Positions 11,592-33,748 of a stretch of DNA of 34,560 bases are shown here, piece by piece. The DNA comes from a virus. A program made the translations under genes and the position numbers. The notes below the pieces were generated by a model. It was not told the DNA's origin, searched no databases, and was given only the letters and a program-made list of their open reading frames with translations. The stretch's first letter is position 1. Every line of letters begins with the position of its first letter. The stretch is taken from IMG/VR virus record IMGVR_UViG_3300017698_000040, positions 1-34,560 of that record. One strand, written 5' to 3'.

Positions 11592-12368
11592 CTACTCAAA
11601 TACTATGTGACCTTCCACGACCACCCCAAGGTGTATCAACCCTGTCAAATTGTCCTGGACTAACATTTCTAAGTTCTCATTCGGTGCGATTCGTAAAGCA
11701 ACGCCGATCTTATTTTGTCCGGCAAACGTTAATCTCGCATGAAATCCATCAACGGCTTGTGCTGGGTTGCTAGCCACTGTCGGGTCGTAGTCATAGCATA
11801 TCCCTTTTATTTCTCCGTTAGTTTTCACATTAAAAATATTGTTTATTGTACCGTCCGTACGCCTAAATGCTAAGCCCCTTGTTAATGCTGGGAGATTGCC
11901 AAACTTATTTAAATCAACCGCGCTATTAGTCTCACAGTTGAATATTATTCGAGTTATATCGACGGTCAAATTCAGAGCAGGGTCATCTATCCTGAGTTGA
12001 TAAATAGCCGGTGTTCCACTACCGTCAACGTTCATATTGTCATTCCCTACACTGACCTGAACCCCAGCTGGAAATGAAAAATCAAGCTGAGAGTCAAGCG
12101 TTATAGTGTTGACTGCGATGGCCAACACCTTGCCAGAATAGAACCTATTATTTATTGAGTCTAAAATTCTAAGGTACTGACCGACAACAAAACCAGCGGA
12201 AGACACAACATTAATAGTATATGTCTCTGCTGTTGCTGGAATACTCAATGTTGTTGACGCAACCTTTAGAACGAGTGGGATAATAATAACAGGGGTTGTC
12301 TGATCCTGAATATTTACAGGAACACCACCGTTTGACTCTATTATCGCTCCCCTCTGGTTCCTTATCAC
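11592..12368 (-). CDS. Virion-module protein of unknown role (258 aa, beta-rich)
   Basis: ORF track. A GTG start overlaps the upstream stop (GTGA), and an AGAGG SD lies 7 nt upstream. It sits between the capsid and adaptor genes. Confidence 0.7.
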   Translation of the reverse strand: MIRNQRGAIIESNGGVPVNIQDQTTPVIIIPLVLKVASTTLSIPATAETYTINVVSSAGFVVGQYLRILDSINNRFYSGKVLAIAVNTITLDSQLDFSFPAGVQVSVGNDNMNVDGSGTPAIYQLRIDDPALNLTVDITRIIFNCETNSAVDLNKFGNLPALTRGLAFRRTDGTINNIFNVKTNGEIKGICYDYDPTVASNPAQAVDGFHARLTFAGQNKIGVALRIAPNENLEMLVQDNLTGLIHLGVVVEGHIVFE

Positions 12369-12667
12369 TGATTAACCTCTGTTTCCCATATGTTGACGCT
12401 AACTGGTGAGACGGTTGAACTCTTCAGGCACCTGAACTTACCAGGGCCAACGATAGTTATAAAAGAATGTTTGTTTGTTATTTCCTGCAAGACGCCGTTA
12501 AGATATAGCGACTGCCATTCTGTGCCGTCATGAGTGTATTGAATCTGGACACCCTCGTCATCTTCGAGAGCACCAGCAGTTATGGTGACAGTTCCAACGG
12601 GTTGAAATGGAAGACTAAAAGCAAGTAGGGTTGTTGCTGCAATGATTTCTACATTTTTAGTGCTCAT
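12365..12667 (-). CDS. Virion-module protein of unknown role (100 aa)
   Basis: ORF track. I prefer the ATG at 12665-12667, 6 nt after an AAGGTGG SD. It is the first gene after the post-capsid terminator. Confidence 0.65.
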   Translation of the reverse strand: MSTKNVEIIAATTLLAFSLPFQPVGTVTITAGALEDDEGVQIQYTHDGTEWQSLYLNGVLQEITNKHSFITIVGPGKFRCLKSSTVSPVSVNIWETEVNQ

Positions 12668-12688
12668 CAACAGCCACCTTTAAGGAAA

Positions 12689-12712: not shown

Positions 12713-12718
12713 AATTAA

Positions 12719-12988: not shown

Positions 12989-13014
12989 AATTGAACCTCC
13001 TTAAGTTCGTTTGA

Positions 13015-14863: not shown

Positions 14864-15156
14864 TATTCACTCTCCACTCTCTTAATTGTGAGGATAATTC
14901 CTCTGATAAAACGTTTCATTCCTTCGTTGATCCCAATCGTAACCAAGTCAGCGCCTTCATCCGCAGTTGATGACATAATTAAGGACTCTTTCCATATTTC
15001 AAGAAGCTCACGCCCTGATTCAGTTTGTGCAAAGGCCTTATGGATAAGATAGTCAATCTTTTGTCCTTTTGCCTCTGCGTCTTTCTGGAATTTTACAGCT
15101 TCATCCATGCTGATTGGGTTGAGGTCGTCATAAAAGTTGCGGTCATCATTCCTCAA
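14863..15156 (-). CDS. Hypothetical protein between portal and scaffold (~97 aa)
   Basis: ORF track (14863..15162). The GTG at 15162 abuts the AAGGAGG SD, whereas the TTG at 15154-15156 is 5 nt downstream of it. The start is therefore uncertain. Confidence 0.6.
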   Translation of the reverse strand: MRNDDRNFYDDLNPISMDEAVKFQKDAEAKGQKIDYLIHKAFAQTESGRELLEIWKESLIMSSTADEGADLVTIGINEGMKRFIRGIILTIKRVESE

Positions 15157-16687
15157 GTCCACCTCCTTGTTCTAATTGTTGTTGAGCTGCTGCTTGGACT
15201 TGGTCTGCTAGCATCTTTCTTTCTTCATCAGTCCTGACGAGATCAGCAGGGACACCAAGTTTTTGTTGCCAGAAGCGAGGTAAGTCTTCAATTTTAACAG
15301 AACCTGCAACGACCTCCTCTGGTAATTGTGTGATATTGCTAAACCATAACTGGCTATTCTGGAAATCCTCAAGGTCTTCAGCTTTCGCCAATGGGGAGGT
15401 TTGTTTTATTGTTACTTCTTTTCCATCAACCTTAATCTGTGGAATCTTCCCAAGGCTTTGAAGGATGTCAACCACGGCAGCAACTAAAGGCTCAACCAGC
15501 TCAGTTTTTAAGCGGCCAATCGATGCACCGGCATTTTTCAACATCTCCTGTTGCCTGATCATGACCTCTGTTGCGCTTCTTACCGGGTCTGTTACCTCTC
15601 CAAGTGGATCGACAAATAAAGCCTTTCGTATTCCTGCTTGCAGATCTTCAAGAACAAAGTTGCCAAGACCCAAATCACCAGATCGATTAAGTGGTGAAAG
15701 TGTTGGATTTTGGTTGTTGTTGCTCTTGACTGGAATAATAGAGCCTGGAGCAATTCTAACCGTATGGGGATTGAATACGCCATCATCAACACCGGTATAG
15801 ACGCCAGCCATTTGTAGGGCTGCATTCTCAAGAATGAATTGCTTGACCTTGTTGACAGTACGGATATCGGGTAGCATCTGGATAATTGGCCCACGTCCGA
15901 ACACCTCGCCCGATACAACATGCCAACGGAATACAATCAGACGCTTTGAATTAAACGACTGCTCAAAGATTGAAGATTTTGACGGTTCATGAATAACAAC
16001 TTGCCAGTACTTACCGTCTTCAGGGTTAAACAGCATCCCATTCAGGATGTCAACTTTTCTATTCGGCTGTTTCTCAACCATGTTCTGAAGCTGTTGCGGT
16101 AGTTTTGCCCCTGGCCAAACCCTAGTCAAGTGCCGTGCTGCTACCTCCTGCTTTCTCCATGTTGATTCAATGGCCCCGCCAGGCGGGAGTTCAGGATAAA
16201 GTTCGGCAAGTGGAACGTTGGAGAAGTTAAGAACCTCACCTTTGTTGAACTCACCTTCTTCAATCTGGATCGCCCCAGTACCAACTCCAAGATCAGAAAA
16301 TGCCGGGGATATTTCTGTTGAAAAATTTGAGTGGTTGAGATGTGAAAAAAAGGTGTCAGTTGTTTCCTCCAACAGCTCATCAGACCTGTCCTTATCTTCA
16401 TCAGGAACTTCATCGCCAGCCTTTAGATTCATCCACTGTTGCCAGCTTGGGACAATTGACCCCTGAATCCTAGATGCGAATTGTTCAAGCCCAAGGATTG
16501 CCGTTGAATCGAAGACATGTCGATTCTTTCTCTGCCCCGGTGAACGCAATCTGAAAGTTTCGCGTTGTGGGTTTGAGAAGTCAAACGCTTCCTGATGTAA
16601 AGATCTGAACAGCTCCCACCGGTCACGCGCTTCTGAGAATCGCTTGATCAAGTCAGAGACTGATCCTAGCCCTTTTGGGATTGCCAT
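15146..16687 (-). CDS. Portal (head-tail connector) protein, podovirus T7 gp8-like (513 aa)
   Basis: Size, position upstream of scaffold and capsid, and the N-terminal pattern RF.EARDRW..FRSLHQEAFDFSNPQRE are typical of the Head-tail_con family. Confidence 0.85.
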   Translation of the reverse strand: MAIPKGLGSVSDLIKRFSEARDRWELFRSLHQEAFDFSNPQRETFRLRSPGQRKNRHVFDSTAILGLEQFASRIQGSIVPSWQQWMNLKAGDEVPDEDKDRSDELLEETTDTFFSHLNHSNFSTEISPAFSDLGVGTGAIQIEEGEFNKGEVLNFSNVPLAELYPELPPGGAIESTWRKQEVAARHLTRVWPGAKLPQQLQNMVEKQPNRKVDILNGMLFNPEDGKYWQVVIHEPSKSSIFEQSFNSKRLIVFRWHVVSGEVFGRGPIIQMLPDIRTVNKVKQFILENAALQMAGVYTGVDDGVFNPHTVRIAPGSIIPVKSNNNQNPTLSPLNRSGDLGLGNFVLEDLQAGIRKALFVDPLGEVTDPVRSATEVMIRQQEMLKNAGASIGRLKTELVEPLVAAVVDILQSLGKIPQIKVDGKEVTIKQTSPLAKAEDLEDFQNSQLWFSNITQLPEEVVAGSVKIEDLPRFWQQKLGVPADLVRTDEERKMLADQVQAAAQQQLEQGGGLEE

Positions 16688-16688
16688 T

Positions 16689-16904
16689 TTAACCCCCTAG
16701 AGTCTTGGATAAATCTTGTTTAGTCGCCACAAGGAGTGAGCGCCCACCGCGACCGGCAGTTGTTGCCGCTTTCCGCCTTTCAATGTCACCCTCTTCCTCT
16801 GCAAGTTTCTGCTGCTCTAACTGCTTCTGTCTGGCAATCTGTGTGCGCTGATCTCTTGCTGTCTTTTTTGCTTCATCTGCACCGGGACTAAGTAGAGTAC
16901 CCAT
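16689..16904 (-). CDS. Small charged protein (72 aa), paralogue of the 114-aa gene
   Basis: I place the start at ATG 16902-16904, 5 nt after an AAAGGAG SD and 1 nt from the upstream TAA. It shares QKQ.E..KLAE....I.RR.A.....G..GRSLL.A with ORF 16906..17250. Confidence 0.7.
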   Translation of the reverse strand: MGTLLSPGADEAKKTARDQRTQIARQKQLEQQKLAEEEGDIERRKAATTAGRGGRSLLVATKQDLSKTLGG

Positions 16905-16905
16905 A

Positions 16906-17250
16906 TTAACTCCTTTTTGCAGTAAGCAAAGAGCGTCCAAGAAGTCCGCGACTTGACACCGCTTGTCTCCTTGCTATCTCGTCTTTTGCCTCTGCAAGCT
17001 TTTTATCTTCACTCTGTTTTTGCAGTGCGATTAAGTCTTCTTGCTCTTTTGCCAACAACTTCTGCTGCTTTATCAACACGGCAGGATCTTCAGGAATTAT
17101 CTTACCTGGGTCTGCTATTTTCCTCCCGATGTCGCTACCTGTTGTCTTCTCGATGATCTTCCCCCCAGGGTCAATCATTCCGCCGATGTCCTTTCCTCTA
17201 TCACTAGGATCAAGAACGGTCTTAAATCCAGACTTTAATTTATCTCCCAT
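16906..17250 (-). CDS. Small charged protein (114 aa), paralogue of the 72-aa gene
   Basis: ORF track, with an AAAGGGG SD. The C-terminus is QKQSEDKKLAEAKDEIARRQAVSSRGLLGRSLLTA. Confidence 0.7.
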   Translation of the reverse strand: MGDKLKSGFKTVLDPSDRGKDIGGMIDPGGKIIEKTTGSDIGRKIADPGKIIPEDPAVLIKQQKLLAKEQEDLIALQKQSEDKKLAEAKDEIARRQAVSSRGLLGRSLLTAKRS

Positions 17251-17643: not shown

Positions 17644-19365
17644 TCAATTAAACCTGATCTGACTTGCGCCGGTTCCAAGGTTGTTAAGTTGTGAATTACC
17701 GTTGAGTCTTGACCCACCGCCTCCAGATGGTGGTGGGTTGTAACCTGCTGTGAAGTCAAACGCCTCAATCTCTGCATTTGTGTTGCCGATTTCGTTTCCG
17801 AGATATTCCCAGATGTACTCGGTTAACGGGTAGTCTGTATGATCGTAGGCTGTGTCTGTGAACCCTCGTGTTGTGTCGTTTGTTGCCGGGTACGCCCCGC
17901 TAGGCATAGTGTACGACGCGGCAAAGAGATCACGTATTTCGTTGTCGTAAGCCCACGGCCATAAATCGGTTGCTGTTTTAGAGTCCCATCCGGTGTCACC
18001 GTGCCAAGTACCTTCAACGCCAATACGCTTGAGTATGTGGGCCCCGACCATGCCGCTTGACGTTCCTCCGTCGTAGCGATTAGATGTCGTCTCAACTCGT
18101 GGGAGATATAAAAAGTCTGAAGCAAAAGCAACTTGGTTGCTTCCTCTTGCGGTAGCGCCACTAAATGAATTATTTGAGTCAACAGAAAAGCTACCTGTAT
18201 ACGACCCCGCCGTAAGATCTTTAAACAAGCTATTTGTCACACTGTCTGTTAACGACGCCCCGTCATAGGCGAAAGCTAAACGTTGATCTCCGAAAGTATT
18301 TTGATCAAAAATGTCCGTACCTCCTGAATCGGTTGACCCTTTCATTTTCAACGGAACGCTCTCGGTGGGGGTCGTCATCGTTGATTTGTTGCCCCAAAAA
18401 AGAGAGTTGCGTATTTTTAGATTCTGTCCAACAGACCCTTCTAGGTTTATTTGCATAAACCAGTCAATTTCATTGGCGAGGGTAATACATCCGTCAATAC
18501 TGATGTTGTGATTCGACTTAAAAATATACCAAGGATTGTGCTTATCAGTGTTCGACGCCCCAGAAGACGAATTGCTATCGATCAGGATACCGTTCTGGTA
18601 GGCGACGTGATGTGAGCCCTCAAGACCAGTATTGTTATTCCCATAAACTCCGACTAAACTGAACGGATCGCCTGATACCGTATAGTCTCCACGGCCAACA
18701 AAACGGCGGAAAATTATATGGTGAGATTGATCCGCCGTCCCACCAACTCTGAAAGCGTATCTATAGCCACCCGTAAAGGCTATGTCCTCAAATGTAATGT
18801 ACGAGCTATTCCCCCAGGCGGCAAAGCCTGAAGCACTACCGGTGCTACTCTCGACTCGCAAGAATAGTCGCTTAAAAAGTACATGGTCGGCGCCGTCGGC
18901 GACAACGTTTGATGCGTCTGAGTCATCACGATTAATAAGAATAAAACCGTCAACTTTTATATAGCTTCCGGTAACACTTACAAATCGGGCGTTCGAGTCC
19001 CAATTACTATCGGTGTTTGCTCCTGAATCTATCGTGACCGCAAACGGATTCCTTGCCCTGATAGCAGTTAAGCTCCCCGCGGCCCCATCTGGGATTGTCA
19101 AGAGCCCGAGAAGCCCGTCTTGTCTCCCGATAGCATTTACTAGTCCTGAATATACCCCATCGTCAACTATGACCTCATCACCGCCAGACATCTCAGCAAT
19201 TGCAGCGCCTATCGTTCCGTAGCTGTTAGCGTCTGTCCAATCATCAGCGATAGATGCGCCGATAGTCTTTGTCCCTGTTGTCTTAACGTGGAACACTGCT
19301 GCATTGACGTTACATGTAATTGATAGAAAAACAACGACGGATAGAAGTATTTTATATCTTAACAT
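17644..19365 (-). CDS. Secreted right-handed beta-helix protein (573 aa), putative polysaccharide lyase/hydrolase
   Basis: The signal peptide is MLRYKILLSVVVFLSITCNVNA|AV. The opening FHVKTTG...GTIGAAIAEMSGGDEVIVDDGVYSG is typical of beta-helix enzymes, and N/G/S/D-rich repeats follow. A GAGAGG SD is present. Confidence 0.75.
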   Translation of the reverse strand: MLRYKILLSVVVFLSITCNVNAAVFHVKTTGTKTIGASIADDWTDANSYGTIGAAIAEMSGGDEVIVDDGVYSGLVNAIGRQDGLLGLLTIPDGAAGSLTAIRARNPFAVTIDSGANTDSNWDSNARFVSVTGSYIKVDGFILINRDDSDASNVVADGADHVLFKRLFLRVESSTGSASGFAAWGNSSYITFEDIAFTGGYRYAFRVGGTADQSHHIIFRRFVGRGDYTVSGDPFSLVGVYGNNNTGLEGSHHVAYQNGILIDSNSSSGASNTDKHNPWYIFKSNHNISIDGCITLANEIDWFMQINLEGSVGQNLKIRNSLFWGNKSTMTTPTESVPLKMKGSTDSGGTDIFDQNTFGDQRLAFAYDGASLTDSVTNSLFKDLTAGSYTGSFSVDSNNSFSGATARGSNQVAFASDFLYLPRVETTSNRYDGGTSSGMVGAHILKRIGVEGTWHGDTGWDSKTATDLWPWAYDNEIRDLFAASYTMPSGAYPATNDTTRGFTDTAYDHTDYPLTEYIWEYLGNEIGNTNAEIEAFDFTAGYNPPPSGGGGSRLNGNSQLNNLGTGASQIRFN

Positions 19366-19374: not shown

Positions 19375-19911
19375 CTAATGGGCTGCGTAATTAGCCACAG
19401 TCATTGTAGCTTCGCGCGTTGAACTACTTGTATACAGAGTTCCACAAGTTTCTGCACCGAATGCATGACCTGATCCAGCATCATAGAAGTAAGACATAGC
19501 CGCTGTGTTATGATACTGGATATAATACGTTCCGGCATCCAAGAAAATAGGCGTTGACCACGTAATCTCCCACCATGCAGCAATATTATTCATAACTGCG
19601 GATGAGTTGCTACAAGAACCGACCTGCGTCCCGTTGGTCTCATATATCGCCATTGAGAACGTAGCATTATTAGCCGACTTACTGTAAACATATCCATGCG
19701 AAATAGTTAGCCCGCCCGCTGGGACTGTTATCGTAATACGACGTCCTGAGGTGCTTCCGCCAACCTCAGTGCTTCCGATAGTGGTGTATCCCAACTCCGT
19801 ATCTGGATCACCGCCACCACCACTTTGATAGACCATGGGTATAGGGTACGTCCCTTGACCAGCAAAGCACAGTGATGGTATCAGTAAGGCTAGTATTAAA
19901 AATAATCTCAT
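19375..19911 (-). CDS. Secreted jelly-roll (DUF4082/LamG-like) protein (178 aa)
   Basis: The signal peptide is [17 protein letters not shown]|GQ. It is ATGA-coupled to the upstream gene. The pattern ELGYT..G......ITV.AGGLTIS....Y........F.MAIY..NG........[16 protein letters not shown] resembles glycan-binding jelly-roll domains. Confidence 0.65.
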
Positions 19912-20927
19912 CTCAACACACTCCAGTTTAATGTTATGGCTCCTGGAGTAACAGCAGACCCAGATTTATTACAAACCTTAAAATTTACATTGTCTGCTGA
20001 TGGATACGCCACGATATAAACCAGATCACCTACCGGGCTATATCCTGTCACACCAGTTGGATCGCTATTAAAGCCCCAGTTAATTGTGTCTGTTGTAAGC
20101 GTACCTGTTGCCGTTGATGTAACCACCGTTGCGCAAGCACCATCAGAAATTGATACTGTCCCTAGAGCTGATGTCCCACTGGCTATTGATGATGCATATA
20201 ACGTTGCATTGGTAGCGTCATTGCTATATGTATCAACACCGACACCATCGAAAACTCTTAAAGAGTCGTCAGTAGCATTGTATGTGATGTGTCCTGATGC
20301 AACACTTGGGGCTTCATCGGCCAGGATGAAATCAAGGTTAAGAGTGTCAGTCCACTTACTACCAGTAGGTTCGGCTGAATCAGCTACCCTGATAGTCCCA
20401 TCTGAGCCTATAGGTAGTCTGGCATCAGTTGTACTATAAGTATATGTATCGCCTTTCGTTGTTAACGGGCTTGCCCCTCCTCCAGCCGGTGTTGCCCAAT
20501 TTCCATCACCGCGCCAGAATGTTGACGCGCTTGCACCGATTCCACCATTAAGACTAGTTACAGGTAGATTGCCTGTGATATCTGATGCCAGATCTACAAA
20601 TCCCAATGTCAACACTTGGCCTAATATCGTGATGTAGTCTCTTCCCGCAGCGATTGTAACATCAGTTGAATTATCAGTCCCGGCAGGATCAACACCTAAA
20701 TTAGTTCTGGCTGTCGTGTCGTTTGTCAAATCAGACAAGTTATTTGTTGACAACATATCGCCGCCGCCCGGTATTGATTGCCAGGACGCAGTAGAACCAT
20801 CAGTATTAAGGAAATTACCAGCCTGGCCTGATTGACTTGGAAGTGATCCCCCACCTATTGGATAACCCTGATCTGAACCAGCGAAAGCCATCGAACACAA
20901 AAAAAGGAGAATGATAATTGCTCTCAT
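19908..20927 (-). CDS. Tail-fibre-like protein carrying an N-terminal signal peptide (339 aa)
   Basis: The signal peptide is [16 protein letters not shown]|GS. The motifs [28 protein letters not shown] and [37 protein letters not shown] are motifs I associate with phage tail-fibre proteins. An AAGGGGGAA SD is present. Confidence 0.7.
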
Positions 20928-20928
20928 A

Positions 20929-21321
20929 TCAGTTCCCCCTTATTGATACAGTGAAGCCGCTTGTTGTCCCTGCTTCCGTTTTTGTAATAATTATCTTTGC
21001 CCTTGGTGCCATGATCCTACTATATAGCGTTCTATCTGTCCCACCACCGTCTGCAATGGTCGTTGCAACCGGAGCCTCGCCTAGATAAGTATCATCAGTA
21101 GATGACAGCACTGGAACAATCTGCACAGTTGCGCCCTTGTCTATCACAGTATCTACAAATACGTCGACAATATTTCTTGTGTCCACGAATTCTGTGTACG
21201 TTGGGGCAGCGTCTGTCAGCTCTGTGGTGTTTACCCCAACTAGCAACCACGATTTAGAGTCTGCAAACCCTTGATCTGCAAACAAAAGGACAATACCAAT
21301 AACCAATAATACTTTTTTCAT
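20929..21321 (-). CDS. Small secreted beta-rich protein (130 aa precursor)
   Basis: I place the start at ATG 21319-21321, after a GGAGGAG SD, rather than at 21402. The signal peptide is [20 protein letters not shown]|DS. Confidence 0.7.
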
Positions 21322-21352: not shown

Positions 21353-22831
21353 TTATTCGAACACGTCAAAGCCGACCTGCGCTTGCACAGGCTTAGCTCC
21401 AAATCGACTATCTTTTATTCTTACCGCGTTTAACCCCTCTCCCTCTCCGTAAAGGGCATATTCGAGAGCTTCGACTGGGTGTGAGTACTCATTCTTGTCT
21501 GGTTCGTCTGTGTATTTTTCACCTGTTACCATAATGCGACGATAACAGAAACCACCTTGCAGACCCTTCCTAATCATCTTAGCTTTCGGGAGTAGGATAA
21601 ATCTAGGTTTTCCGTCCATGCAAAGTTCTTTGATTGGCTCCTCAAGAGATGCACGTCTAAGCATTGGATTGTTGTCTGCTGTTGGATAACAGGTTATTCC
21701 AGCCCCCTGCAGGATTTGGAATGGGGTGTCATCTGTTCCCTGCCCCCTGTTGTTGCCGGAAGGATCACCCCAGCCACGGAAGGTATAGCCTTTATAATTC
21801 TCCTCGATGTATTTCTTTACAGCAGGAGCGAATGAGGCTGCTGATACGTTCTCACTTGTGAATTCGTCAAATACAACCCACCGATTATAAATTGATTGCT
21901 TCTGAGTAAAGGCACAAGCAGGGGTGCGGCCGAAGTCAAAGCCAAGGATAATTGGATCTGTTTTGTTTGGCTCGAAATCCATATCCAGACAGTGGACTGA
22001 ATCAACATAATACGGATGAACCGGCTTACCTTCCGAAACAAATCCATACTCGTTAGCAAGGTTTACCTTTATCCAGTCATCTGTCTTACCGGACATGCCA
22101 CGCTTATAATAATCAGGTGGTAGGTTGTGAATGTTCTCGGCGTTTGGATTTACCTTCCACGCCCCAGCTCTGCCGGTCACTCCCCCTGGCTGTTTGTGGA
22201 ACTTCCAGCCCTCCGGCTTTATTTCTTCAGCATGCTTGTAATACCAGTGGTCTTCATCTGGTGCGTTTGTGTCTCCAAGCATTCCGTGTTGAGTGCAGAC
22301 AACGCCTTCTTTTCTCGATGGATACCGGCCATGTCGAAGATCAAGCATATCTATAACTGACTTCGATAGCTCCTTAACCTCGTTCAACCATATCCATGTT
22401 GCTTGATGCCCCCTGGCCTTCTTTACATGATCAGGACGGTCAAACGCGATGAAGATCACTTCTGACTCAACAATGGTTCCATCTTCAAGCTCGAACAATG
22501 GTCTGTGGGTTGGTGGCTCCTTACTGCCCTGTTTAAACTCTCCTAGTTCACCATGGATTTCAAGGTAGTCTTTGATTGTGGTTGAAAACAGCTCTGAATA
22601 GGTGTTACGGACTGCGATAAATCTGGTTAGGCGCTTGTTGAAGTGTTTATGACCGACAACTTTTACAGGCTCTTGTTCACACATTAAATCAAACATTTTT
22701 AGAATGGTTTGAACTGTCTTACCAGAGCCGAGAGGCCCCATAATAAAAGAAACAGGAGCGCGGCAATCTGCGTACTCCTGCAATACCTTCCCTTGTGGCT
22801 TTAAAACATATTCAATCGTTTTCGCCATCAA
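21353..22831 (-). CDS. terL: Terminase large subunit (492 aa)
   Basis: Walker A is GPLGSGKT and Walker B-like is WIWLNE. A GDTN coupling motif and a C-terminal nuclease-type ILGFDFG are present. The gene overlaps the TerS 3' end. Confidence 0.9.
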   Translation of the reverse strand: MMAKTIEYVLKPQGKVLQEYADCRAPVSFIMGPLGSGKTVQTILKMFDLMCEQEPVKVVGHKHFNKRLTRFIAVRNTYSELFSTTIKDYLEIHGELGEFKQGSKEPPTHRPLFELEDGTIVESEVIFIAFDRPDHVKKARGHQATWIWLNEVKELSKSVIDMLDLRHGRYPSRKEGVVCTQHGMLGDTNAPDEDHWYYKHAEEIKPEGWKFHKQPGGVTGRAGAWKVNPNAENIHNLPPDYYKRGMSGKTDDWIKVNLANEYGFVSEGKPVHPYYVDSVHCLDMDFEPNKTDPIILGFDFGRTPACAFTQKQSIYNRWVVFDEFTSENVSAASFAPAVKKYIEENYKGYTFRGWGDPSGNNRGQGTDDTPFQILQGAGITCYPTADNNPMLRRASLEEPIKELCMDGKPRFILLPKAKMIRKGLQGGFCYRRIMVTGEKYTDEPDKNEYSHPVEALEYALYGEGEGLNAVRIKDSRFGAKPVQAQVGFDVFE

Positions 22832-25703: not shown

Positions 25704-25710
25704 TTAGGTT
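25699..25710 (-). repeat. Motif B copy spanning the Dam stop codon (GGGCGTTAGGTT)
   Basis: GTTAGGTT (25703..25710) is complementary to AACCTAAC (26215..26222) in the Dam leader. It can also pair locally, GGCGTTA (25700..25706) with TAACGCC (25718..25724). Confidence 0.6.
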
Positions 25711-26195
25711 TCAAAAATAACGCCGGGTATCCTCTTGATCGCTTCTACGTTCTCGGCACCAAAGGCAAGCAACATGCTGCCAGTTCCGGCGTTAGAGGAT
25801 TTTGAGCCATCATGTCGAATAAAAGAGAGTCGGCCTTTTATGAAATTAACAGCGTCAGCGTGTTTTATCGCCTCTTGCCCCCATCCTGTTTCTGTTCGGC
25901 CAAAGACAAGCGCTATCCCGTTTCCGTGGGCTTTCAATTTCTGTAACCATTTGCCGATTTCCCGACCATACGGGGGGTTAAGCCATACTCTACCTATCCA
26001 GTCGGTAGCTATCCCGCACCCGCCAACATCCTCGCAAATATGAACCTTCGCAGTATCAAACGGGCGGAAGGTTTGCGTGCATGGATCCATGTCAAACGGG
26101 CCGAGTTTTTCCACAATTTCGGCAGGGGTAAACCAAGTGTTCGTTTGGCCCTCATGCGTTACTGAGTCACAACTAAAAAAGGACTTGTTTTCCAT
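25704..26195 (-). CDS. dam: DNA N6-adenine methyltransferase, phage Dam type (163 aa)
   Basis: The motifs WFTPAEIVEKLGPFDMDPC and VWLNPPYG (catalytic NPPY), followed by FGRTETGW and GRLSFI, match the phage Dam (PF05869) layout. Confidence 0.85.
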   Translation of the reverse strand: MENKSFFSCDSVTHEGQTNTWFTPAEIVEKLGPFDMDPCTQTFRPFDTAKVHICEDVGGCGIATDWIGRVWLNPPYGREIGKWLQKLKAHGNGIALVFGRTETGWGQEAIKHADAVNFIKGRLSFIRHDGSKSSNAGTGSMLLAFGAENVEAIKRIPGVIFET

Positions 26196-28109: not shown

Positions 28110-28298
28110 ATGGCATGGACGCACGATCAAAAGAAAGTCGAAAGAGACGAAGCCCCTACATGGGTACTTTGCTTAGAACTTGTTTTGCTTGGTTGCGCCC
28201 TGTGGATGCTCCTGAGCGTAAGCTTGAAGCCCTCTTCCCATGGTGTTGAAGACGGGCAGAAATTTTACCAAACTCAGGTTATGGGATCGGGGGAGTAA
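28110..28298 (+). CDS. Possible small membrane protein (62 aa); frame uncertain
   Basis: The stop is TAATG-coupled to the next gene, and one TM is present (WVLCLELVLLGCALWMLLSV). However, the ATG abuts the AGGAGG SD. An alternative ATG at 28115 in another frame (44 aa) has ideal spacing. Confidence 0.4.
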   Translation: MAWTHDQKKVERDEAPTWVLCLELVLLGCALWMLLSVSLKPSSHGVEDGQKFYQTQVMGSGE

Positions 28299-28504
28299 TG
28301 GAACAGACATTCACCACAAAAATTGACCATATCGAGCTTGAAGTTTTAGCGGAGGTCACTGAGGACGAAGTGGATATTTTAGAAGTCAACACGTCTGATG
28401 ATATCTCTGAACTTATAAGCGACCGGACATACACAATTTTAAGAATTGCGTTACGTGAGCAGTATTCTTCACGAATGCACGAAGCTAAAGAGGTGGCGGC
28501 ATGA
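28298..28504 (+). CDS. Hypothetical acidic protein (68 aa)
   Basis: ORF track, with a GGGGGAG SD. The stop is ATGA-coupled to the next ORF. Confidence 0.65.
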   Translation: MEQTFTTKIDHIELEVLAEVTEDEVDILEVNTSDDISELISDRTYTILRIALREQYSSRMHEAKEVAA

Positions 28505-28659
28505 GCGACCTTGCAAAGCACTACCATGAAAGCAAGCAGATAGAAATGGGGATTAAATATCACGAACAGGCGATATCGAGACTTAAACGCGATCAAGCAT
28601 TATTGGAAGATCTTATTTCACGGCTTGAGGCGCAAGAGTTCAGCGATGATGCCGCATGA
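28501..28659 (+). CDS. Hypothetical protein (52 aa, MSDLAKHYHESKQIEMGIKYHEQAISRLKRDQALLEDLISRLEAQEFSDDAA)
   Basis: Manual translation. It is ATGA-coupled at both ends and is below the track threshold. Confidence 0.5.
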   Translation: MSDLAKHYHESKQIEMGIKYHEQAISRLKRDQALLEDLISRLEAQEFSDDAA

Positions 28660-28772
28660 CCACATACGCCCTGATTGACTTGCTGGAATATTTGGAAATG
28701 TTAGAGCGTGGAATTAACGCTGAATATCAAACATGGATGAACGAACAAATCTACGGGGGAGTAAACCAATGA
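28656..28772 (+). CDS. Hypothetical protein (38 aa, MTTYALIDLLEYLEMLERGINAEYQTWMNEQIYGGVNQ)
   Basis: Manual translation. It is ATGA-coupled at both ends and links the mini-gene chain to the DUF1351 gene. Confidence 0.45.
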   Translation: MTTYALIDLLEYLEMLERGINAEYQTWMNEQIYGGVNQ

Positions 28773-29707
28773 ACAACGAATTAATTGTGATCGAAAAGGT
28801 TAACCCAATCGAAGTTTTTACCGGCAACGGGCTAGACCCATTGTTGGAGCAAATCAAAAGGGAAGTATCTGCTTTTGAGCCTAATCTTGAAACGGTAACT
28901 GGACGTAAAGAAGTTGCTTCAATGGCTCACAAGGTTAGCAAGTCAAAGGTTGTTATTGACAATCTCGGTAAGGACTTGGTCGCGGATTGGAGGCAGAAAT
29001 CAAAACAAGTGGACGCAGCCAGGAAGTCAGCGCGTGATTTTCTCGACAACCTGAAAGAAGAAGTCCGCAAGCCTTTGACAGAGTGGGAGGAGGAAGAAAA
29101 AGCCAGAGTCGAAGCAGAACAACTCAAACAGGAAATTAAACTCGCTCATGAATCTGCTATTGCTGAAAATGATTTATTTGATCGCCAGCGAGACATTGAG
29201 CGTAAAGAGGCTGAACTTGCCAAGCAAGAAGAAGAGCGCAAGGCGAAGGAATTATCCGAACAGCAAGAGCGTGAGCGTGTTGAGCGTGAAGAGCGATTAA
29301 AGAAAGAGGCCGCTGAAAAAGCAAAGCGAGAGGCAGAAGAGAGCGCCAAGCGTGAGCGCGAAGAGTTGCAACGGAAAGAGCGTGAAGCTATCGAGGCAAA
29401 AGAACGCGCAGAGCGTGAAAAGATCGCGGCCGAAGAACGGTCAAAGCTTGAAAAGCAACAGGCGATTGAGAACGAGCAGCGCAAAGCGAAAGAAGAGGCA
29501 GAGCGGGTCGAACGTGAGCGCCTTGAAAAACAGCGCATCGAAAAAGAGGAAGCTGAGCGTAAGGCAGCAAACAAACGCCACCAAGGAAATGTTAATCGTG
29601 AGGCAAAAGAGAGCCTTGTTGCCGCTGGATTCGACAATGGAATGGCTAAGGATATTGTGGTTTTGATCGCTCAAGGAAAAATCAAGAACGTCACAATCAA
29701 TTATTAA
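28769..29707 (+). CDS. DUF1351-family protein with a long E/R/K-rich helical spacer (312 aa)
   Basis: I place the start at ATG 28769 (GGGGGAG SD, ATGA coupling). The N-terminus NNELIVIEKVNPIEVFTGNGLDPLLEQIKREV and the C-terminus ..IAQGKIKNVTINY are typical of DUF1351 proteins found beside Erf/RecT genes. Confidence 0.75.
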   Translation: MNNELIVIEKVNPIEVFTGNGLDPLLEQIKREVSAFEPNLETVTGRKEVASMAHKVSKSKVVIDNLGKDLVADWRQKSKQVDAARKSARDFLDNLKEEVRKPLTEWEEEEKARVEAEQLKQEIKLAHESAIAENDLFDRQRDIERKEAELAKQEEERKAKELSEQQERERVEREERLKKEAAEKAKREAEESAKREREELQRKEREAIEAKERAEREKIAAEERSKLEKQQAIENEQRKAKEEAERVERERLEKQRIEKEEAERKAANKRHQGNVNREAKESLVAAGFDNGMAKDIVVLIAQGKIKNVTINY

Positions 29708-29718
29708 CGGGGGTAATT

Positions 29719-30429
29719 ATGCCAAACAACTTAGCAGTAAAAGAAGAGGCAGCAATGCAGACGGTCACGCCAATGAGTCTTCTGCAAGCCGCCCAACAGA
29801 GCAATGCAAGTGTAGAACAGCTTCAACAACTAATGGAATTACAAATCCGCTGGGAAGAGAACGAAGCCAGAAAAGCATTCAACGATGCAATGGCTAACTT
29901 CCGCGAAGAATGCCCAACGATAGCAAGAACTAGGAAAGGACACAACTCAAACTATGCCGGTCTTGCTGAGACTATCACGCAAATCAAGCCGCTATTAGCC
30001 AAACATGGCTTGTCTCATCGTTGGAGCACTAATCAAATGGAAGGTGGTATTTCAGTTACTTGCACCATTACTCATAGGCTCGGCCATTGCGAGTCAACAG
30101 AGTTGTCAGCAGACGCAGACAAGAGCGGAAATAAAAACGTCATTCAGGCTATCGGCTCAACGGTCGCATATCTTGAAAGATACACCTTATTTGCAATTCT
30201 TGGACTTGCTTCTGCCGACCAAGATAATGACGGTTGCGATTTTGGCCGTGATCCATCTCGCTATATCACCGAGAGTCAACTTGCAGATATTGAGGCCTTA
30301 ATTGATGAAGTTAAGGCAGATGAAAATCAATTCTGTAGCTGGATTGGAGCTAAATTTCTAGCAGATATCCCAGCGTCAAGGTTTGATAAAGCGGTTAAAG
30401 CTCTTGAATCAAAGCGGGGGAAATCATGA
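29719..30429 (+). CDS. erf: Erf-family single-strand annealing protein (236 aa)
   Basis: NYAGLAETITQIKPLLAKHGLS...ITHRLGHCE...QAIGSTVAYLERYTLFAILGLASADQDNDG matches the ERF superfamily core. Confidence 0.85.
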   Translation: MPNNLAVKEEAAMQTVTPMSLLQAAQQSNASVEQLQQLMELQIRWEENEARKAFNDAMANFREECPTIARTRKGHNSNYAGLAETITQIKPLLAKHGLSHRWSTNQMEGGISVTCTITHRLGHCESTELSADADKSGNKNVIQAIGSTVAYLERYTLFAILGLASADQDNDGCDFGRDPSRYITESQLADIEALIDEVKADENQFCSWIGAKFLADIPASRFDKAVKALESKRGKS

Positions 30430-31031
30430 TTGAAATTATTAATTGCGAACAGAATAGCCCTGAATGGTTTGCCGCAAGGCTTGGCATCCCAACAGCAAGC
30501 CAGTTTTCAACCGTCATGGCAAAAGGCCAAGGCAAAACACGTAGAACTTACATGCTCAAGCTCTTAGGTGAGCGCCTAACGGGTGAAATGACAGAGGGCT
30601 ATAGCAACGCAGCAATGGAACGAGGTCATGAAATGGAAGCATCAGCCCGCAACGCCTACGCCTTTGAGTCTGGCAATGCTCCTGAACTTGTTGGTTTTGT
30701 TCGTAACGGTGAGCAAGGGGCAAGCCCAGACGCATTAATCATGCTTGATGGAATTCTTGAAATTAAAACCAAGGCTCCCCATTTGCAGCTTGACGTGATT
30801 TTAAAAGGCAAAGTTCCAACGGAGCACAGCGCACAAATCCAAGGTCAATTGTGGGTATCAGAGCGTGAGTGGTGCGACTTCGTTTCTTACTGGCCTGGGC
30901 TACCTCTTTTCGTCAAACGTGTTTACCGCGATGAAGAGAAAATTTCCCAAATCAAAGAAGCCGTTCAACTTTTTAATGAAGAGTTGGCCGAACTTGAAAA
31001 TCAATTCAACGCCATGCAGAACGCAGCATGA
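30426..31031 (+). CDS. YqaJ / lambda-Exo-type recombination exonuclease (201 aa)
   Basis: The motifs NSPEWFAARLGIPTASQFSTVM, GHEMEASARNAY and SPDALI..GILEIKT (PD-(D/E)XK) are present. It is ATGA-coupled to erf. Confidence 0.85.
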   Translation: MIEIINCEQNSPEWFAARLGIPTASQFSTVMAKGQGKTRRTYMLKLLGERLTGEMTEGYSNAAMERGHEMEASARNAYAFESGNAPELVGFVRNGEQGASPDALIMLDGILEIKTKAPHLQLDVILKGKVPTEHSAQIQGQLWVSEREWCDFVSYWPGLPLFVKRVYRDEEKISQIKEAVQLFNEELAELENQFNAMQNAA

Positions 31032-31195
31032 TAAAGGGAATAACCCGCGAATGGGTGGAGGAGGTTGAAACCCTTCTCTACCTGATTGGCAAGGTTAACG
31101 CAGCAGATAGCCCAGAGGAGGCCGCACAGCATCTTAACATGGTGATGACATGCGGTAATGACATTAACAGCAAGCATGAAGGGATAAGACAGTGA
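31028..31195 (+). CDS. Hypothetical protein (55 aa, MIKGITREWVEEVETLLYLIGKVNAADSPEEAAQHL...)
   Basis: Manual translation. It is ATGA-coupled upstream and GTGA-coupled downstream. Confidence 0.5.
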   Translation: MIKGITREWVEEVETLLYLIGKVNAADSPEEAAQHLNMVMTCGNDINSKHEGIRQ

Positions 31196-31434
31196 AATAC
31201 AGCTTTTATTGCAAGCATTGTGGCTACACCAAAACATCAGACAATAAGCAAAAGGTTCAAGCTATCAAAAAGCTCCACAAGACTAGAGCCCCTTTTTCTA
31301 GTGCGTGCACTTTTGCAGGCACCGGACGCGGAACAATTGCCCGACCTTCACTCGCTGAGGTTATTAGGAATGAAAATCGCCGCAGTCGTGAAGCAATAAA
31401 GATTGGTAATGGGAAAAGTCGGAGGGCTGCATAG
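31192..31434 (+). CDS. Hypothetical basic protein (80 aa)
   Basis: ORF track. It has a GTG start coupled to the previous stop and contains CKHCG. Confidence 0.55.
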
Positions 31435-31886
31435 TGAGTGTAAATAAAGTAATTCTTGTAGGTAACCTCGGCAAAGACCCTGAGCTTAAATACACACCAT
31501 CAGGCGCGGCAGTGGCTAACTTTTCAATCGCAACAACTGAGCGTTACAAAGACCGTGACGGTGACAAGCAAGAGAAAACAGAATGGCACAATATTGTGGT
31601 TTGGCGGCAACTGGCTGAAATCTGCGGCAAGTACTTACACAAGGGCAAGCAGGTTTATGTCGAGGGCAAACTCCAAACTCGCAGCTATGACGATAGAGAC
31701 GGAAACAAAAAGTATATCACTGAAATTGTAGCCGATCAGATGCAGATGTTAGGCGGCGGTGACGGTCAACAATCCCAAAACGGGAACAATAGCGGGTATC
31801 AAGGCCAGCAACAGAGCAGTCAGTGGCAGCAGGGCGGCGGGACTCAAGAGCCTGTGTTTAATCCAGACTCAGATATTCCTTTTTAA
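31434..31886 (+). CDS. ssb: Single-stranded DNA-binding protein (150 aa)
   Basis: The OB-fold core is [33 protein letters not shown]...[15 protein letters not shown] Gly/Gln-rich tail ends in the acidic tip DSDIPF. Confidence 0.95.
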
Positions 31887-31898
31887 TCATTCCCAAAG

Positions 31899-31920
31899 CC
31901 GATTCTCCGGAGTCGGTTTT
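31899..31920 (+). terminator. Rho-independent terminator/attenuator after ssb
   Basis: CCGATTC-tccg-GAGTCGG forms a 7-bp stem (one G-U pair) with a tetraloop and is followed by TTTT. Confidence 0.65.
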
Positions 31921-31948
31921 GATGAGCGATTAACCAGAGGAGGTAACC

Positions 31949-32164
31949 ATGGGACAGAGAAAAGTTGTTATTTACAAGTGGCAGAGAGTTAAAGGTCAAC
32001 CCTATTGCGAAAAAATCTGTGTCGGTCACGGGATATTTCACCAGTTCGGTGTCGATTATGAAGACTCCGAAACAGGGCCAGGTAATTACTCGACAGCAAT
32101 CGTTGAGATGCCTGATGGATCTGTCAAGAACGTACATGTTGAACTGATCACTTTCAGTAACTGA
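31949..32164 (+). CDS. Hypothetical protein (71 aa)
   Basis: ORF track, with a GAGGAGG SD. The pattern G.FHQFG.......YSTAIVEMPDGSV recurs in small phage proteins (from memory). Confidence 0.7.
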   Translation: MGQRKVVIYKWQRVKGQPYCEKICVGHGIFHQFGVDYEDSETGPGNYSTAIVEMPDGSVKNVHVELITFSN

Positions 32165-32171
32165 GGAAATT

Positions 32172-32492
32172 ATGAAAGAGCCAGAACAGCGTACAACACT
32201 ACAAAACGCAAGTTTACACGTCTACGCCAAGCTACTGGCTGAAAAGCTGGCAGAGGCGGGGCTAGACATGCGGAAGGTGATTAAAGTTGATATCACTCCG
32301 ACACCTGAGAATGTCAAGGAGACGATGATTAAACCGGTCATGACCTCGTTATTTCCAGATAAGAAATCTACGCGGGAGCTTTCAACGAAGGAAATTCAGC
32401 AGGTGTATGAAGTGATGAATCGTGCGACTGCTGAGAGGTTGGGGATTAGTATCGAATGGCCATCAATTGAGAATAGAGGGAGGGTAGCATGA
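32172..32492 (+). CDS. ninB: NinB/Orf-like recombination mediator (106 aa)
   Basis: RTTLQNASLHVYAKLLAEKL parallels lambda NinB RSLDQNRKLWACLGDV. STRELSTKEIQQVYEVMNRATAERLGISIEW parallels STSRMRVGEFAELLELIQAFGTERGVKW. NinG lies nearby. Confidence 0.55.
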   Translation: MKEPEQRTTLQNASLHVYAKLLAEKLAEAGLDMRKVIKVDITPTPENVKETMIKPVMTSLFPDKKSTRELSTKEIQQVYEVMNRATAERLGISIEWPSIENRGRVA

Positions 32493-32641
32493 AAAAAAAA
32501 CAAATCGAGTATGGCGTTATTTATATCGTAGACGGAACGGAATATGGGCCGTTTAAAAAGAGCCAAACAACTAAAAAAGAGTGTCGGAGGCTTGGACGAT
32601 TGAAGGGTGTGAAAATAAAGGTGGTTGAACTTGCAGTCTAA
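32489..32641 (+). CDS. Hypothetical basic protein (50 aa, MKKKQIEYGVIYIVDGTEYGPFKKSQTTKKECRRLGRLKGVKIKVVELAV)
   Basis: Manual translation. It is ATGA-coupled to the previous gene. Confidence 0.5.
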   Translation: MKKKQIEYGVIYIVDGTEYGPFKKSQTTKKECRRLGRLKGVKIKVVELAV

Positions 32642-32801
32642 GCGCCCACATCCTGATTGGTGCTGGGATCATTGCAACGCAGCAAAGTTCAGCCGCAACG
32701 CAAAGTATAAACCAATTCGCTGCATGTGTGGTGATGAGTGTAAATACAGAGTAGCGATAGAAAGGTTTGGATTAGATGAAAAGCATACAGATAAAAAATG
32801 A
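32631..32801 (+). CDS. Possible Cys-rich mini-protein (56 aa, ..HPDWCWDHCNAAKF...RCMCGDECKY..)
   Basis: A TTG start lies 6 nt after AAGGTGG. The frame is open with six Cys, and it overlaps the next ORF by 26 nt. Confidence 0.3.
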   Translation: MQSKRPHPDWCWDHCNAAKFSRNAKYKPIRCMCGDECKYRVAIERFGLDEKHTDKK

Positions 32802-32997
32802 AATCGAGCACGACTACACAGATGAGGTTGTCTGCCCGTGGTGTGGGTATGAGCATGCTGATTCGTGGGAAAGGAACATGAATAACGGATCAGAGAGTAT
32901 GGACTGGTGCGAAGAATGCGGGGGACAAATGTCGATAACCTGTCATATAGATGTTTCGTATACAACCGGCAAGTGGGATCGTGGAGTTATTGGATGA
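32776..32997 (+). CDS. Zinc-ribbon protein (73 aa)
   Basis: It has CPWCGYEH ... CEECGG pairs. ORF track. Confidence 0.6.
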   Translation: MKSIQIKNEIEHDYTDEVVCPWCGYEHADSWERNMNNGSESMDWCEECGGQMSITCHIDVSYTTGKWDRGVIG

Positions 32998-33542
32998 AGA
33001 AGCCACGAAAGAAGAAGTGTAGAGCCTGTGGAGAAGTGTTCCAGCCAGAACGACCCATTCAGCCTTGCTGCTCTCCTTCGTGCGCTATAGAGCTTGTCAG
33101 GCTGCAGAAAGAGCAAAAACGGAAAGACGATAGGAAAGAATTTAAACGAAAGGTAAAGTTGAATGATAGATCTTACCAAACGAAACTTGCTCAATATTAT
33201 TTCAACCGTTTTATACGATTTCGCGACAGCGGTTTGCCTTGTATCTCTTGCGGTAAATATCACTCAGGACAAATCCATGCTGGTCATTATCGGTCTGTTG
33301 GCGCTGTAGGGGCTTTGCGTTTTCACGAGGCGAACTGTCACGCGCAATGCTCCGTTTGTAATAATCATCGGAGCGGGAACATCGTTGAATACAGAATCAA
33401 CCTCATCAAAAAAATAGGGCTTGAACGTGTCGAGTGGTTAGAAAAAGACCACCCACCCGTTAAGCGCACGATAGAAGAAATTATCGAGATAAAGAAGCAC
33501 TACCAGAAACTTTGTAACGAGCTAGAAAGGGAGGCAGCATGA
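32994..33542 (+). CDS. ninG: NinG/Rap-family protein (182 aa)
   Basis: I place the start at ATG 32994, which is ATGA-coupled. KKPRKKKCRACGEVFQPERPIQPCCSPSC, LPCISCGKYHSGQIHAGHYRSVGA..LRFHE.N.HAQCSVCNNHRSGN and VEYR parallel lambda NinG closely. Confidence 0.9.
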   Translation: MKKPRKKKCRACGEVFQPERPIQPCCSPSCAIELVRLQKEQKRKDDRKEFKRKVKLNDRSYQTKLAQYYFNRFIRFRDSGLPCISCGKYHSGQIHAGHYRSVGAVGALRFHEANCHAQCSVCNNHRSGNIVEYRINLIKKIGLERVEWLEKDHPPVKRTIEEIIEIKKHYQKLCNELEREAA

Positions 33543-33748
33543 AAGATATGAACGGTAGAGAAATACATGCTGGTGACATCATTAGACACGGATACGGCAT
33601 ACCGCCAACAACGGTTGATCTGTTTGTTTTCGAAGACAACAATCCTGATTATTTTCTTGTTGTGGATAAGAATGGGCGGATGACTGAGTTATTCGATGGA
33701 ATAGCTTCAAGCTCTAGACTCATGAAAATAATGGAGGGCGAATCATGA
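33539..33748 (+). CDS. Hypothetical protein (69 aa)
   Basis: ORF track. It is ATGA-coupled at both ends. Confidence 0.65.
   Translation: MKDMNGREIHAGDIIRHGYGIPPTTVDLFVFEDNNPDYFLVVDKNGRMTELFDGIASSSRLMKIMEGES

Follow-up and report, generated by a model that had tools for sequence, protein, structure and literature searches.

A predicted Sec-exported, phage-fibre-like protein from a podovirus of the IMG/VR collection belongs to a large unannotated family and may act with exported partners on the host envelope

The window analysed here is the whole of the IMG/VR virus record IMGVR_UViG_3300017698_000040 (34,560 nucleotides), and the gene under study lies on its minus strand at 19908..20927, encoding a protein of 339 amino acids (aa) that will be called the target. 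The target is very probably exported and a member of a family defined by a conserved C-terminal domain (CTD). Judged by sequence, this is a very large, unannotated family of exported fibres, encoded mostly on phage and viral contigs. A composite reading, which we regard as an even call, is that the target would be a Sec-exported fibre working off the virion, together with exported partners, on polysaccharide of the host envelope. The parts of the target gene are as follows, where P0035 is a database relative.

19908..20927, minus strand: target gene, 339 aa, ATG start; predicted Sec-exported fibre-like protein with signal peptide, shaft modules and conserved CTD
20880..20927, minus strand: signal peptide, aa 1-16, cleavage predicted before G17
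20478..20759, minus strand: fibre shaft module, aa 57-150, 58% identical to P0035
20328..20465, minus strand: module TTKGD..Y.Y...ARLPIG.DG.I.VADS....G.KW, aa 155-200, matching PHROG 32934 and kept in close homologues
19911..20189, minus strand: family-defining CTD, aa 247-339, modelled as a beta-sandwich, with invariant C265 and C319

The first-pass annotation had read this open reading frame (ORF) as one that combines tail-fibre motifs with a Sec signal ending AFA↓GS (the arrow marks the predicted cleavage site). This held, as the repeats, the P0035 match and a tripartite signal were all found, and at the level of sequence the target was confirmed as a real gene with fibre motifs and an export-signal pattern. 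The Shine-Dalgarno-like sequence AAGGGGGA lies 7 nt 5' of its ATG, which begins 1 nt past the stop of the upstream gene and has no alternative start upstream, and its stop overlaps the next start as ATGA. The N-terminus follows the tripartite Sec pattern, with a basic n-region (MR), an 11-residue uncharged hydrophobic core and A-F-A↓G, placing small residues at -3 and -1. The lipobox motif [LVI][ASTVI][GAS]C was looked for in the target and not found, and a lipoprotein was therefore rejected for the target, although a few of its relatives are lipoproteins. Signal peptides were called throughout by a home-made heuristic, not by SignalP, with a background of 17% among the other ORFs of the fetched loci, in which genes were called by a greedy longest-ORF method. 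In the window the rule was passed by 5 of the 51 ORFs, four of which are consecutive (20929..21321, 19908..20927, 19375..19911 and 17644..19365).

The middle of the target is made of modules that are also found in phage fibres. A fibre repeat is present in two copies (aa 39-49 and aa 137-147), and a short ARTNLG repeat unit weakly resembles the tandem repeats in the solved structure of a short tail fibre, gp92 (PDB 9zd7; whole-sequence E 0.003), beyond which the PDB sequence search with the target gave nothing. The match of aa 57-150 to P0035 has an E of 1e-42, and P0035 bears the Phage_T7_tail N-terminal adaptor and is therefore a genuine virion fibre. Other relatives of the target have modules in common with PHROG tail-fibre and virion-structural families, and the sole PHROG match of the target itself (32934, unknown function, E 1.8e-12) covers aa 142-200. 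The T7-type tail-fibre N-terminal attachment domain was found in the target neither as PF03906 nor in PHROGs, which match the central module only, and Pfam gave no other match. The gene also stands between the genes for the terminase large subunit (TerL) and the portal, and not at the end of the tail module after the internal-core genes, as gp17-type fibres do. A different gene had been proposed as the genuine virion fibre, and its T7-type tail-fibre N-terminus, recognised by PHROG, bears this out:

1231..3708, minus strand: genuine fibre or spike of the virion, 825 aa, whose N-terminal adaptor is T7-type; aa 1-125 are matched by tail and tail-fibre families of PHROG

The same annotation had proposed to align the two proteins, and their alignment gave no similarity (best E 0.36), and the possibility that the target is a copy of the phage's own fibre was rejected on this result.

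A protein search with the target returned 1387 matches, mostly through the central shaft, and the highly conserved CTD of about 93 aa was also present in 77 of the best 120 matches. C265 and C319 are invariant across the 77 aligned sequences and are the only cysteines of the mature target, and the CTD of the window is 61-78% identical to the others. When the CTD alone was searched with phmmer against 1.84 billion representatives of 50%-identity clusters, at least 3000 of them matched at E<=1e-3 and 2148 at E<=1e-10. The domain is at the extreme C-terminus in 195/195 full-length proteins, and the proteins that carry it range from 135 to 1513 aa in the databases and reach 2516 aa in the fetched loci. 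A signal-peptide-like N-terminus was found in 176 of the 195 CTD proteins, in 77 of the 87 in loci and in 101 of 112 independent 50%-cluster representatives (about 90%). One protein seemingly without a signal peptide, P0056, has one once a longer ORF is read, and a few CTD proteins have a lipobox instead (e.g. P0053 and P0170). In P0131 (355 aa, without a signal peptide) three CTD stretches were matched, so the domain can be tandemly repeated.

No Pfam match was found under the CTD in the 77 members, the target itself has none in Pfam or NCBIfam, and no S74 domain was found by Pfam in the target or in these members. Searching the CTD consensus with tblastn against 50,697 deposited phage genomes gave nothing at E<=0.1, megablast of 10 kb of the window against deposited phages gave nothing, and no published description of the CTD family was found in a full-text literature search. 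A pattern scan for the CTD found 74 loci in IMG/VR and, in metagenome-assembled genomes (MAGs), 15 loci in Acidobacteriota, Bryobacteraceae, Gemmatimonas, Azospirillum, Oryzomonas, Iamiaceae, Eisenbacteria and Pirellulales. Three of the CTD loci lie on long contigs (340-614 kb) of Acidobacteria MAGs. Two of them, L014 (4356-10419) and L015 (6477-13060), have the full gene cassette described below, and the third has a 2484-aa CTD protein among housekeeping-looking genes (L008, 834-8288). The family is therefore common to phages and bacterial chromosomes.

The AlphaFold2 model of the full-length target has a mean predicted local distance difference test score (pLDDT) of 72. The CTD exceeds 90, also when modelled alone, and is predicted to be a six-stranded beta-sandwich with short strands. 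The shaft was poorly modelled, which is expected because a trimeric fibre was folded as a monomer. A Foldseek comparison had been proposed by the first-pass annotation as a check on a fibre or receptor-binding fold, and its outcome was mixed. None of the matches in the PDB was significant (best E 0.1-0.2; the whole model reached 0.14 and the CTD-only model 0.11), but both of these non-significant top lists were enriched for phage tailspike and depolymerase C-terminal domains (phi297 gp61 with a probability of 0.93, KP32gp38 with 0.96, LKA1, Sf6 and K64-1), R-type pyocin fibre tips, H-type lectins and CBM3 modules. Among predicted viral structures (BFVD), nine matches fell below E 1e-3, the best reaching 2e-5. 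They are mostly proteins of caudoviruses that have not been characterised; those with a name include an Mtd-N-domain protein and one with a K1-lyase-C domain. Annotated tail fibres come next, at E 2e-3 to 1e-2. The structure comparisons are compatible with a fibre-tip or lectin-like sandwich for the modelled CTD, and are not proof of it.

Genes for other exported proteins accompany the CTD gene. Neighbours were counted as same-strand neighbours in non-redundant loci, and a signal peptide was called in 52/70 (74%) of the genes at position +1 and in 37/61 (61%) at +2, compared with 4-26% at other positions. In the window these partners are:

19375..19911, minus strand: +1 partner, 178-aa signal-peptide protein, mature start GQGTYPIP; its start overlaps the target stop (ATGA)
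17644..19365, minus strand: +2 partner, 573-aa signal-peptide protein, predicted via its homologues to be a right-handed beta-helix polysaccharide lyase or hydrolase

For the four consecutive signal-peptide proteins of the window, Pfam, NCBIfam and PADLOC gave no matches, and PHROGs only the match of unknown function to the central module of the target.

In 39 of the 70 cases, PGPG stands only a few residues from the predicted cleavage site of the +1 protein, against 0-1 at any other position, for example in CFA↓GQGMGPGPG, A↓QVGMPWPGPG and A↓QISGPMFPGPG. With short ORFs counted, a neighbour with signal peptide and PGPG (SP-PGPG) is found at 41 of 86 CTD genes (42 by pattern, one of them spurious), and nearly always overlaps the CTD gene by 4 nt or abuts it. 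Past the PGPG, these proteins continue with a Gly-rich linker and then with an unrelated, variable body. The +1 protein of the window resembles those of the loci L001, L044, L025 and L062 weakly (phmmer E 4e-6 to 6e-4), and appears to belong to the SP-PGPG class in degenerate form. Only one close relative was found for it among 5.8 billion proteins, so that it is hypervariable. The SP-PGPG partner in L003 (10996-11169) has 57 aa, consisting of signal peptide, LMFPGPG, Gly linker and a Cys-x9-Cys loop, and this suggests the conserved N-terminal peptide as the functional core of the +1 class.

The +2 genes are large, and Pfam Beta_helix was matched by 3 of the 10 tested. The +2 protein of the window has nine relatives, eight of them at 40-44% identity over 86-92% of its length and one at 29%. 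All seven relatives that were retrieved have signal peptides, some match Beta_helix and two weakly match Chondroitinase_B. P0124, among the closest, is listed with PF22842 (Pel9A-like_beta_helix) in a precomputed context table. It belongs to a locus for extracellular polysaccharide (EPS) on a bacterial contig, its neighbours being GT4 glycosyltransferases, polysaccharide deacetylases, an acetyltransferase and a Wzy_C polymerase. Another relative, P0123, comes from an SU10-like phage (L098), within a run of five signal-peptide proteins that adjoins a Wzy_C gene.

This run (L098, 3001-13592) takes the place expected for tail genes and consists of five consecutive large proteins (226, 1327, 778, 529 and 664 aa), all with a signal-peptide-like N-terminus. 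The first has a precomputed SU10_adaptor label, and the Wzy_C-like gene, near the +2-type beta-helix gene, comes after the run (14187-15164). Surface-polysaccharide genes were also seen near the CTD gene, namely a Wzy_C-like polymerase or ligase in L094 (8450-9529) and an Acyl_transf_3 O-acyltransferase in L003 (4730-5857), and the pattern of such Wzy_C and O-acyltransferase neighbours resembles seroconversion modules. At the C-terminus of many +2 proteins, a short Gly-rich stretch leads into an alternating hydrophobic strand (...GGGGSRLNGNSQLNNLGTGASQIRFN, ...GGGSTINIR, ...GNVVVH and ...GGGGSRGIIGG; for instance in the window at 17644..17730, in L001 at 6248-7630 and in L003 at 12417-13346), and this ending might serve as a second motif for docking or strand complementation.

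The two ends of the window form an exact direct repeat of 99 bp (1..99 = 34462..34560), and it is therefore a complete phage genome of 34,461 bp. Its portal is nearest to that of Methylophilales phage MEP301 (34% identity), with those of pelagiphages next, and on this sequence evidence the window phage is a complete MEP301-like podovirus. The minus strand encodes, in order, TerS, TerL, the four signal-peptide proteins (130, 339, 178 and 573 aa), small ORFs, portal, major capsid protein, tail tubular proteins A and B, internal virion proteins and the 825-aa fibre or spike. MEP301 has the same gene order, and its interval between TerL and portal carries an acetyltransferase and unrelated small genes, so this interval is a variable accessory slot. 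Its boundaries and the gene that precedes the target are:

21353..22831, minus strand: terminase large subunit, PHROG 2 (E 5e-15); upstream boundary of the slot
20929..21321, minus strand: -1 gene, 130 aa, signal peptide with cleavage predicted before DSK (↓DSK); no family match in Pfam, PHROG, NCBIfam or PADLOC
15146..16687, minus strand: T7-type portal, PF12236 (E 5e-87); downstream boundary of the slot

No minus-strand terminator was found between 16.5 and 23.5 kb, where the two minus-strand promoter-like matches both have the minimum score of 9/12 and are fewer than in shuffled sequence. Each of the four signal-peptide genes has a Shine-Dalgarno-like sequence and abuts or overlaps its neighbour. 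Therefore, the cassette is placed for expression with the late structural genes, and an independent moron with its own promoter is unsupported by the scan of this region. The cassette has a GC content like that of the rest of the genome.

The position of the cassette was shown to vary across T7-like, Mu/HK97-like and SU10-like phages. In the window it occupies the TerL-portal interval, and in L001 (a phage with a Mu-type portal, an S49 protease and an HK97-type capsid) it immediately precedes TerL. In L003 it is found past the endolysin region of a high-GC contig, and in L093 past an SLT protein and a 1533-aa protein. In the SU10-like phage L095, a shaft relative with a signal peptide is encoded between capsid and adaptor.

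From this evidence we infer the following course of events. The signal peptide would take the unfolded chain of the target across the inner membrane and would be cut off after AFA. The CTD, being the last part to emerge, would fold in the oxidising periplasm with a C265-C319 disulfide, and could nucleate or cap a trimeric fibre made of shaft modules borrowed from true virion fibres. The export signal in about 90% of the family, the few lipoproteins, the cysteine pair, the lack of an attachment domain, the accessory slot and the exported neighbours together argue that the protein leaves the cytoplasm and is not loaded on the virion there.

The target would thereby come first in a cassette of exported proteins that are translated together and expressed late. 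The adjacency and translational coupling of the +1 gene to the CTD gene and the Gly-rich tether of its product make the +1 protein the obvious candidate ligand of the CTD, and its N-terminal peptide by the cleavage site (the PGPG class) probably docks on the fibre. The +2 protein is predicted to be a beta-helix polysaccharide lyase or hydrolase of bacterial EPS-locus ancestry, and this ancestry points to envelope polysaccharide as the substrate. Together the three proteins may bind and remodel or degrade host EPS, capsule or O-antigen from the periplasmic or the outer side, late in infection. Late co-expression suggests that the benefit would come at exit. With the polysaccharide stripped or masked, progeny could be freed without being trapped or lost on debris, and unproductive re-adsorption, perhaps also superinfection, could be prevented.

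Several observations weigh against this proposal. The +1 protein of the window has TYPIP in the place of MGPGPG, after the same signal peptide and GQG, and a PGPG neighbour is present at only about half of the CTD genes. The 573-aa +2 protein of the window is itself without a Pfam match, its enzyme nature resting on homologues, and late expression was inferred from gene order only. Carbohydrate binding by the CTD is a guess, because all of its Foldseek matches in the PDB are non-significant (E>=0.1). In addition, the CTD is 60-79% identical in loci binned to several host phyla (the binned relatives being Acidobacteriota, Gemmatimonas, Azospirillum and others), which is hard to square with the binding of variable glycans. 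Virion fibres have a conserved N-terminal attachment end and a variable tip. The conservation of the CTD would fit better with a role in assembly, such as trimer nucleation after N-to-C translocation, or with a docking platform. Finally, about 10% of the CTD proteins have no detectable signal peptide, and the domain may therefore also serve fibres that are assembled in the cytoplasm.

Other explanations can be set against an exported fibre that acts with its partners on polysaccharide. The first-pass annotation had suggested a receptor mask or decoy built from a fibre, in which the exported protein would bind the receptor that the phage itself uses, on infected cells or on debris, and block further adsorption, as T5 Llp does for FhuA. 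The fibre shaft modules and an export signal replacing the attachment domain survive from that suggestion, and the lectin-like or tip-like structural neighbours (non-significant) and the hypervariable +1 protein, as expected of receptor tracking, also agree with it. However, the target does not resemble the receptor-binding fibre of this phage, lacks the features of a lipoprotein, has no PADLOC match and lies in a late operon without its own promoter. Moreover, its tip (the CTD) is conserved and the remainder variable, which is the opposite of receptor tracking by the tip, and a mask alone needs no enzyme partner. We consider a mask unlikely, although it overlaps functionally with the best explanation, and a secreted adhesin, the alternative offered in the same annotation, is closer to the evidence than a decoy. 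Another explanation that we think improbable is a moron of benefit to the host, where an adhesin and a polysaccharide-modifying enzyme would alter the biofilm or surface of a lysogen (lysogenic conversion) independently of the lytic cycle. The mobility of the cassette and its variable positions, the copies in bacterial chromosomes, and the lambdoid recombination module (ERF, YqaJ, SSB, NinG) with divergent transcription near 28.6 kb would suit such a role. There is also precedent in the cell-surface fibre adhesins of Bdellovibrio (PMC10769870) and in the signal-peptide proteins of Porphyromonas gingivalis phages, which were proposed as outer-membrane modifiers (PMC10367356). On the other side, the cassette lacks its own promoter and terminator, translational coupling ties it into the TerL-portal interval, its GC content is indistinguishable from that of the genome, and no integrase was seen among the larger window ORFs scanned against Pfam and PHROGs.

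More doubtful is that the target is a component of the virion that matures outside the cytoplasm, being exported together with tip protein and spike, disulfide-bonded in the periplasm and joined to particles only at lysis, or that its hydrophobic N-terminus is an uncleaved assembly anchor. The three cassette proteins look like the classical equipment for host recognition (fibre, tip or adhesin, and beta-helix spike), the cassette lies inside structural operons, and the five large signal-peptide proteins of L098 stand in the expected place of tail genes. Some subfamilies also have conserved N-terminal motifs right after the signal peptide, and the conserved CTD could be a docking domain. Against this, no precedent is known among tailed phages, the T7-like virion gene set of the window phage is already complete and includes an adaptor-bearing fibre, and the cassette occurs in unrelated morphotypes without a common docking site. 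Chromosomal CTD genes are found in Acidobacteria MAGs away from obvious phage genes, and some CTD members are lipoproteins. An artefact, that is, an N-terminus hydrophobic by chance or a wrongly called start in a normal gene for a cytoplasmic fibre, could be feared from the home-made signal-peptide rule and its 17% background. It is hardly credible given the strong ribosome-binding site and ATG without an alternative upstream start, the signal peptide in about 90% of hundreds of independent homologues, and the position-specific enrichment of signal peptides in the neighbours.

The closest described analogue of the target is the superfamily of mosaic adhesive trimer (MAT) fibres of Bdellovibrio bacteriovorus, which are cell-surface adhesins with a signal peptide, a trimeric phage-like shaft and a beta-sandwich tip (Caulton et al. 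2024, PMC10769870). MATs are encoded by chromosomal genes of the predator and have a conserved anchoring domain of about 130 aa at the N-terminus and variable C-terminal tips, many with an S74 chaperone, and in the crystal of Bd2133 a short peptide is bound to the tip sandwich (PMC10769870). The MATs and the target family are alike in the signal peptide, the phage-fibre-like shaft (presumably trimeric in the target) and the beta-sandwich, and the peptide on the tip of Bd2133 resembles the proposed docking of the +1 N-terminal peptide. The polarity is reversed, however, because the target family has a conserved C-terminal domain and a variable N-terminus and shaft. Our own alignment shows the target family to be without a conserved N-terminal domain, its conservation being limited to the C-terminus. 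Unlike MATs, the target family has no S74 domain, is found mostly on phage or viral contigs, and belongs to a cassette with two more exported proteins.

T5 Llp and the Cor proteins of phi80 and N15 are small, phage-encoded exported lipoproteins for superinfection exclusion, which stop adsorption to the infected cell or debris. Llp of T5 is expressed early, Llp and Cor being made early or from a prophage, and they are without fibre homology. The target, in contrast, has 339 aa, is built from a fibre, is not lipidated, and belongs to a late operon with an enzyme partner. A different parallel is found in gp37-gp38 of T2 and S16, Stf-Tfa of lambda and S-U of Mu, where the gene right behind that of the fibre is small and highly variable and encodes a protein that binds to the C-terminal end of the fibre. 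The target and its +1 partner resemble the gp37-gp38 and Stf-Tfa pairs, as if such a pair had been moved to the envelope. The proteins of the known pairs, including S-U, are cytoplasmic and end on or act on the virion, whereas the target and the +1 protein carry signal peptides, and no similarity to the Tfa or gp38 families was found in the cassette proteins with Pfam and PHROGs.

Cargo of the type IX secretion system (T9SS) and trimeric autotransporter adhesins share with the target family a Sec signal, a variable and often fibrous passenger and a conserved C-terminal domain of about 90 aa. A sorting domain of T9SS or autotransporter type was rejected for the CTD, which matches neither TIGR04183 and TIGR04131 nor the YadA anchor (NCBIfam, Pfam) and has short strands and a cysteine pair. 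The CTD also differs from both in being modelled as a soluble sandwich, and the MAGs that bear it span many phyla without T9SS. For the +2 protein, the nearest comparison is with soluble phage depolymerases and with the glycoside hydrolases of soil viruses, which, as predicted for +2, are phage-encoded and degrade polysaccharide by a beta-helix off the virion. Known soluble phage depolymerases are released at lysis and are without signal peptides, while the +2 protein of the window has retained a signal peptide of bacterial type and is associated with an exported fibre. Phages of P. gingivalis encode proteins of unknown function with signals for signal peptidase I (SPase-I), which were proposed to modify the outer membrane of the host (Matrishin et al. 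2023, PMC10367356). These differ from the target family in that no fibre homology or CTD has been described for them, and they belong to different families.

Tail-fibre-like genes in viral metagenomes are routinely annotated as receptor-binding proteins of the virion and used for host-range inference. As there are thousands of clusters of fibre-module proteins with export signals and exported partners, part of the phage fibre repertoire probably acts on the envelope of the infected cell. This would point to an unstudied step late in infection, the remodelling of surface polysaccharide from within, in phages of uncultivated bacteria of several phyla. It can be speculated, although we doubt it, that tailed phages of such bacteria encode a self-contained, Sec-exported apparatus for host recognition off the virion, with a disulfide-bonded fibre, a variable tip protein docked by a peptide and a beta-helix enzyme, all assembled in the envelope. 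In the most radical version, these would be receptor-binding proteins of the virion that mature in the periplasm and are joined to it at lysis. What is new here is the conserved CTD and the short docking-type motif (PGPG after the signal peptide), both of which can be searched for, and three genes in a podovirus of 34.5 kb make a simple system.

Some further features of the window were observed. Transcription diverges near 28.6 kb (28279..34000), with the lambdoid ERF, YqaJ exonuclease, SSB and NinG on the plus strand, and a Dam methylase gene lies on the minus strand at 25704..26195. An integrase was not found among the window ORFs scanned, these being only the larger ones and the scan being against Pfam and PHROGs, and there are no tRNAs in the window. 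Two minus-strand genes between the major capsid protein and tail tubular protein A, 11592..12368 and 12365..12670, have homologues in the unrelated phage L001. Their 258-aa protein matches a 563-aa protein of L001 (phmmer 4e-14) that is encoded directly upstream of the CTD gene and has weak discoidin and DUF6385 matches, and their 101-aa protein matches a 146-aa protein of L001 (5e-4). Both might accompany the cassette as additional accessory or decoration proteins. Just upstream of the portal, the small, partly overlapping ORFs 16689..16940 and 16906..17250 (minus strand), both without an assigned family, have a 47-aa segment in common (49% identity, E 6e-9).

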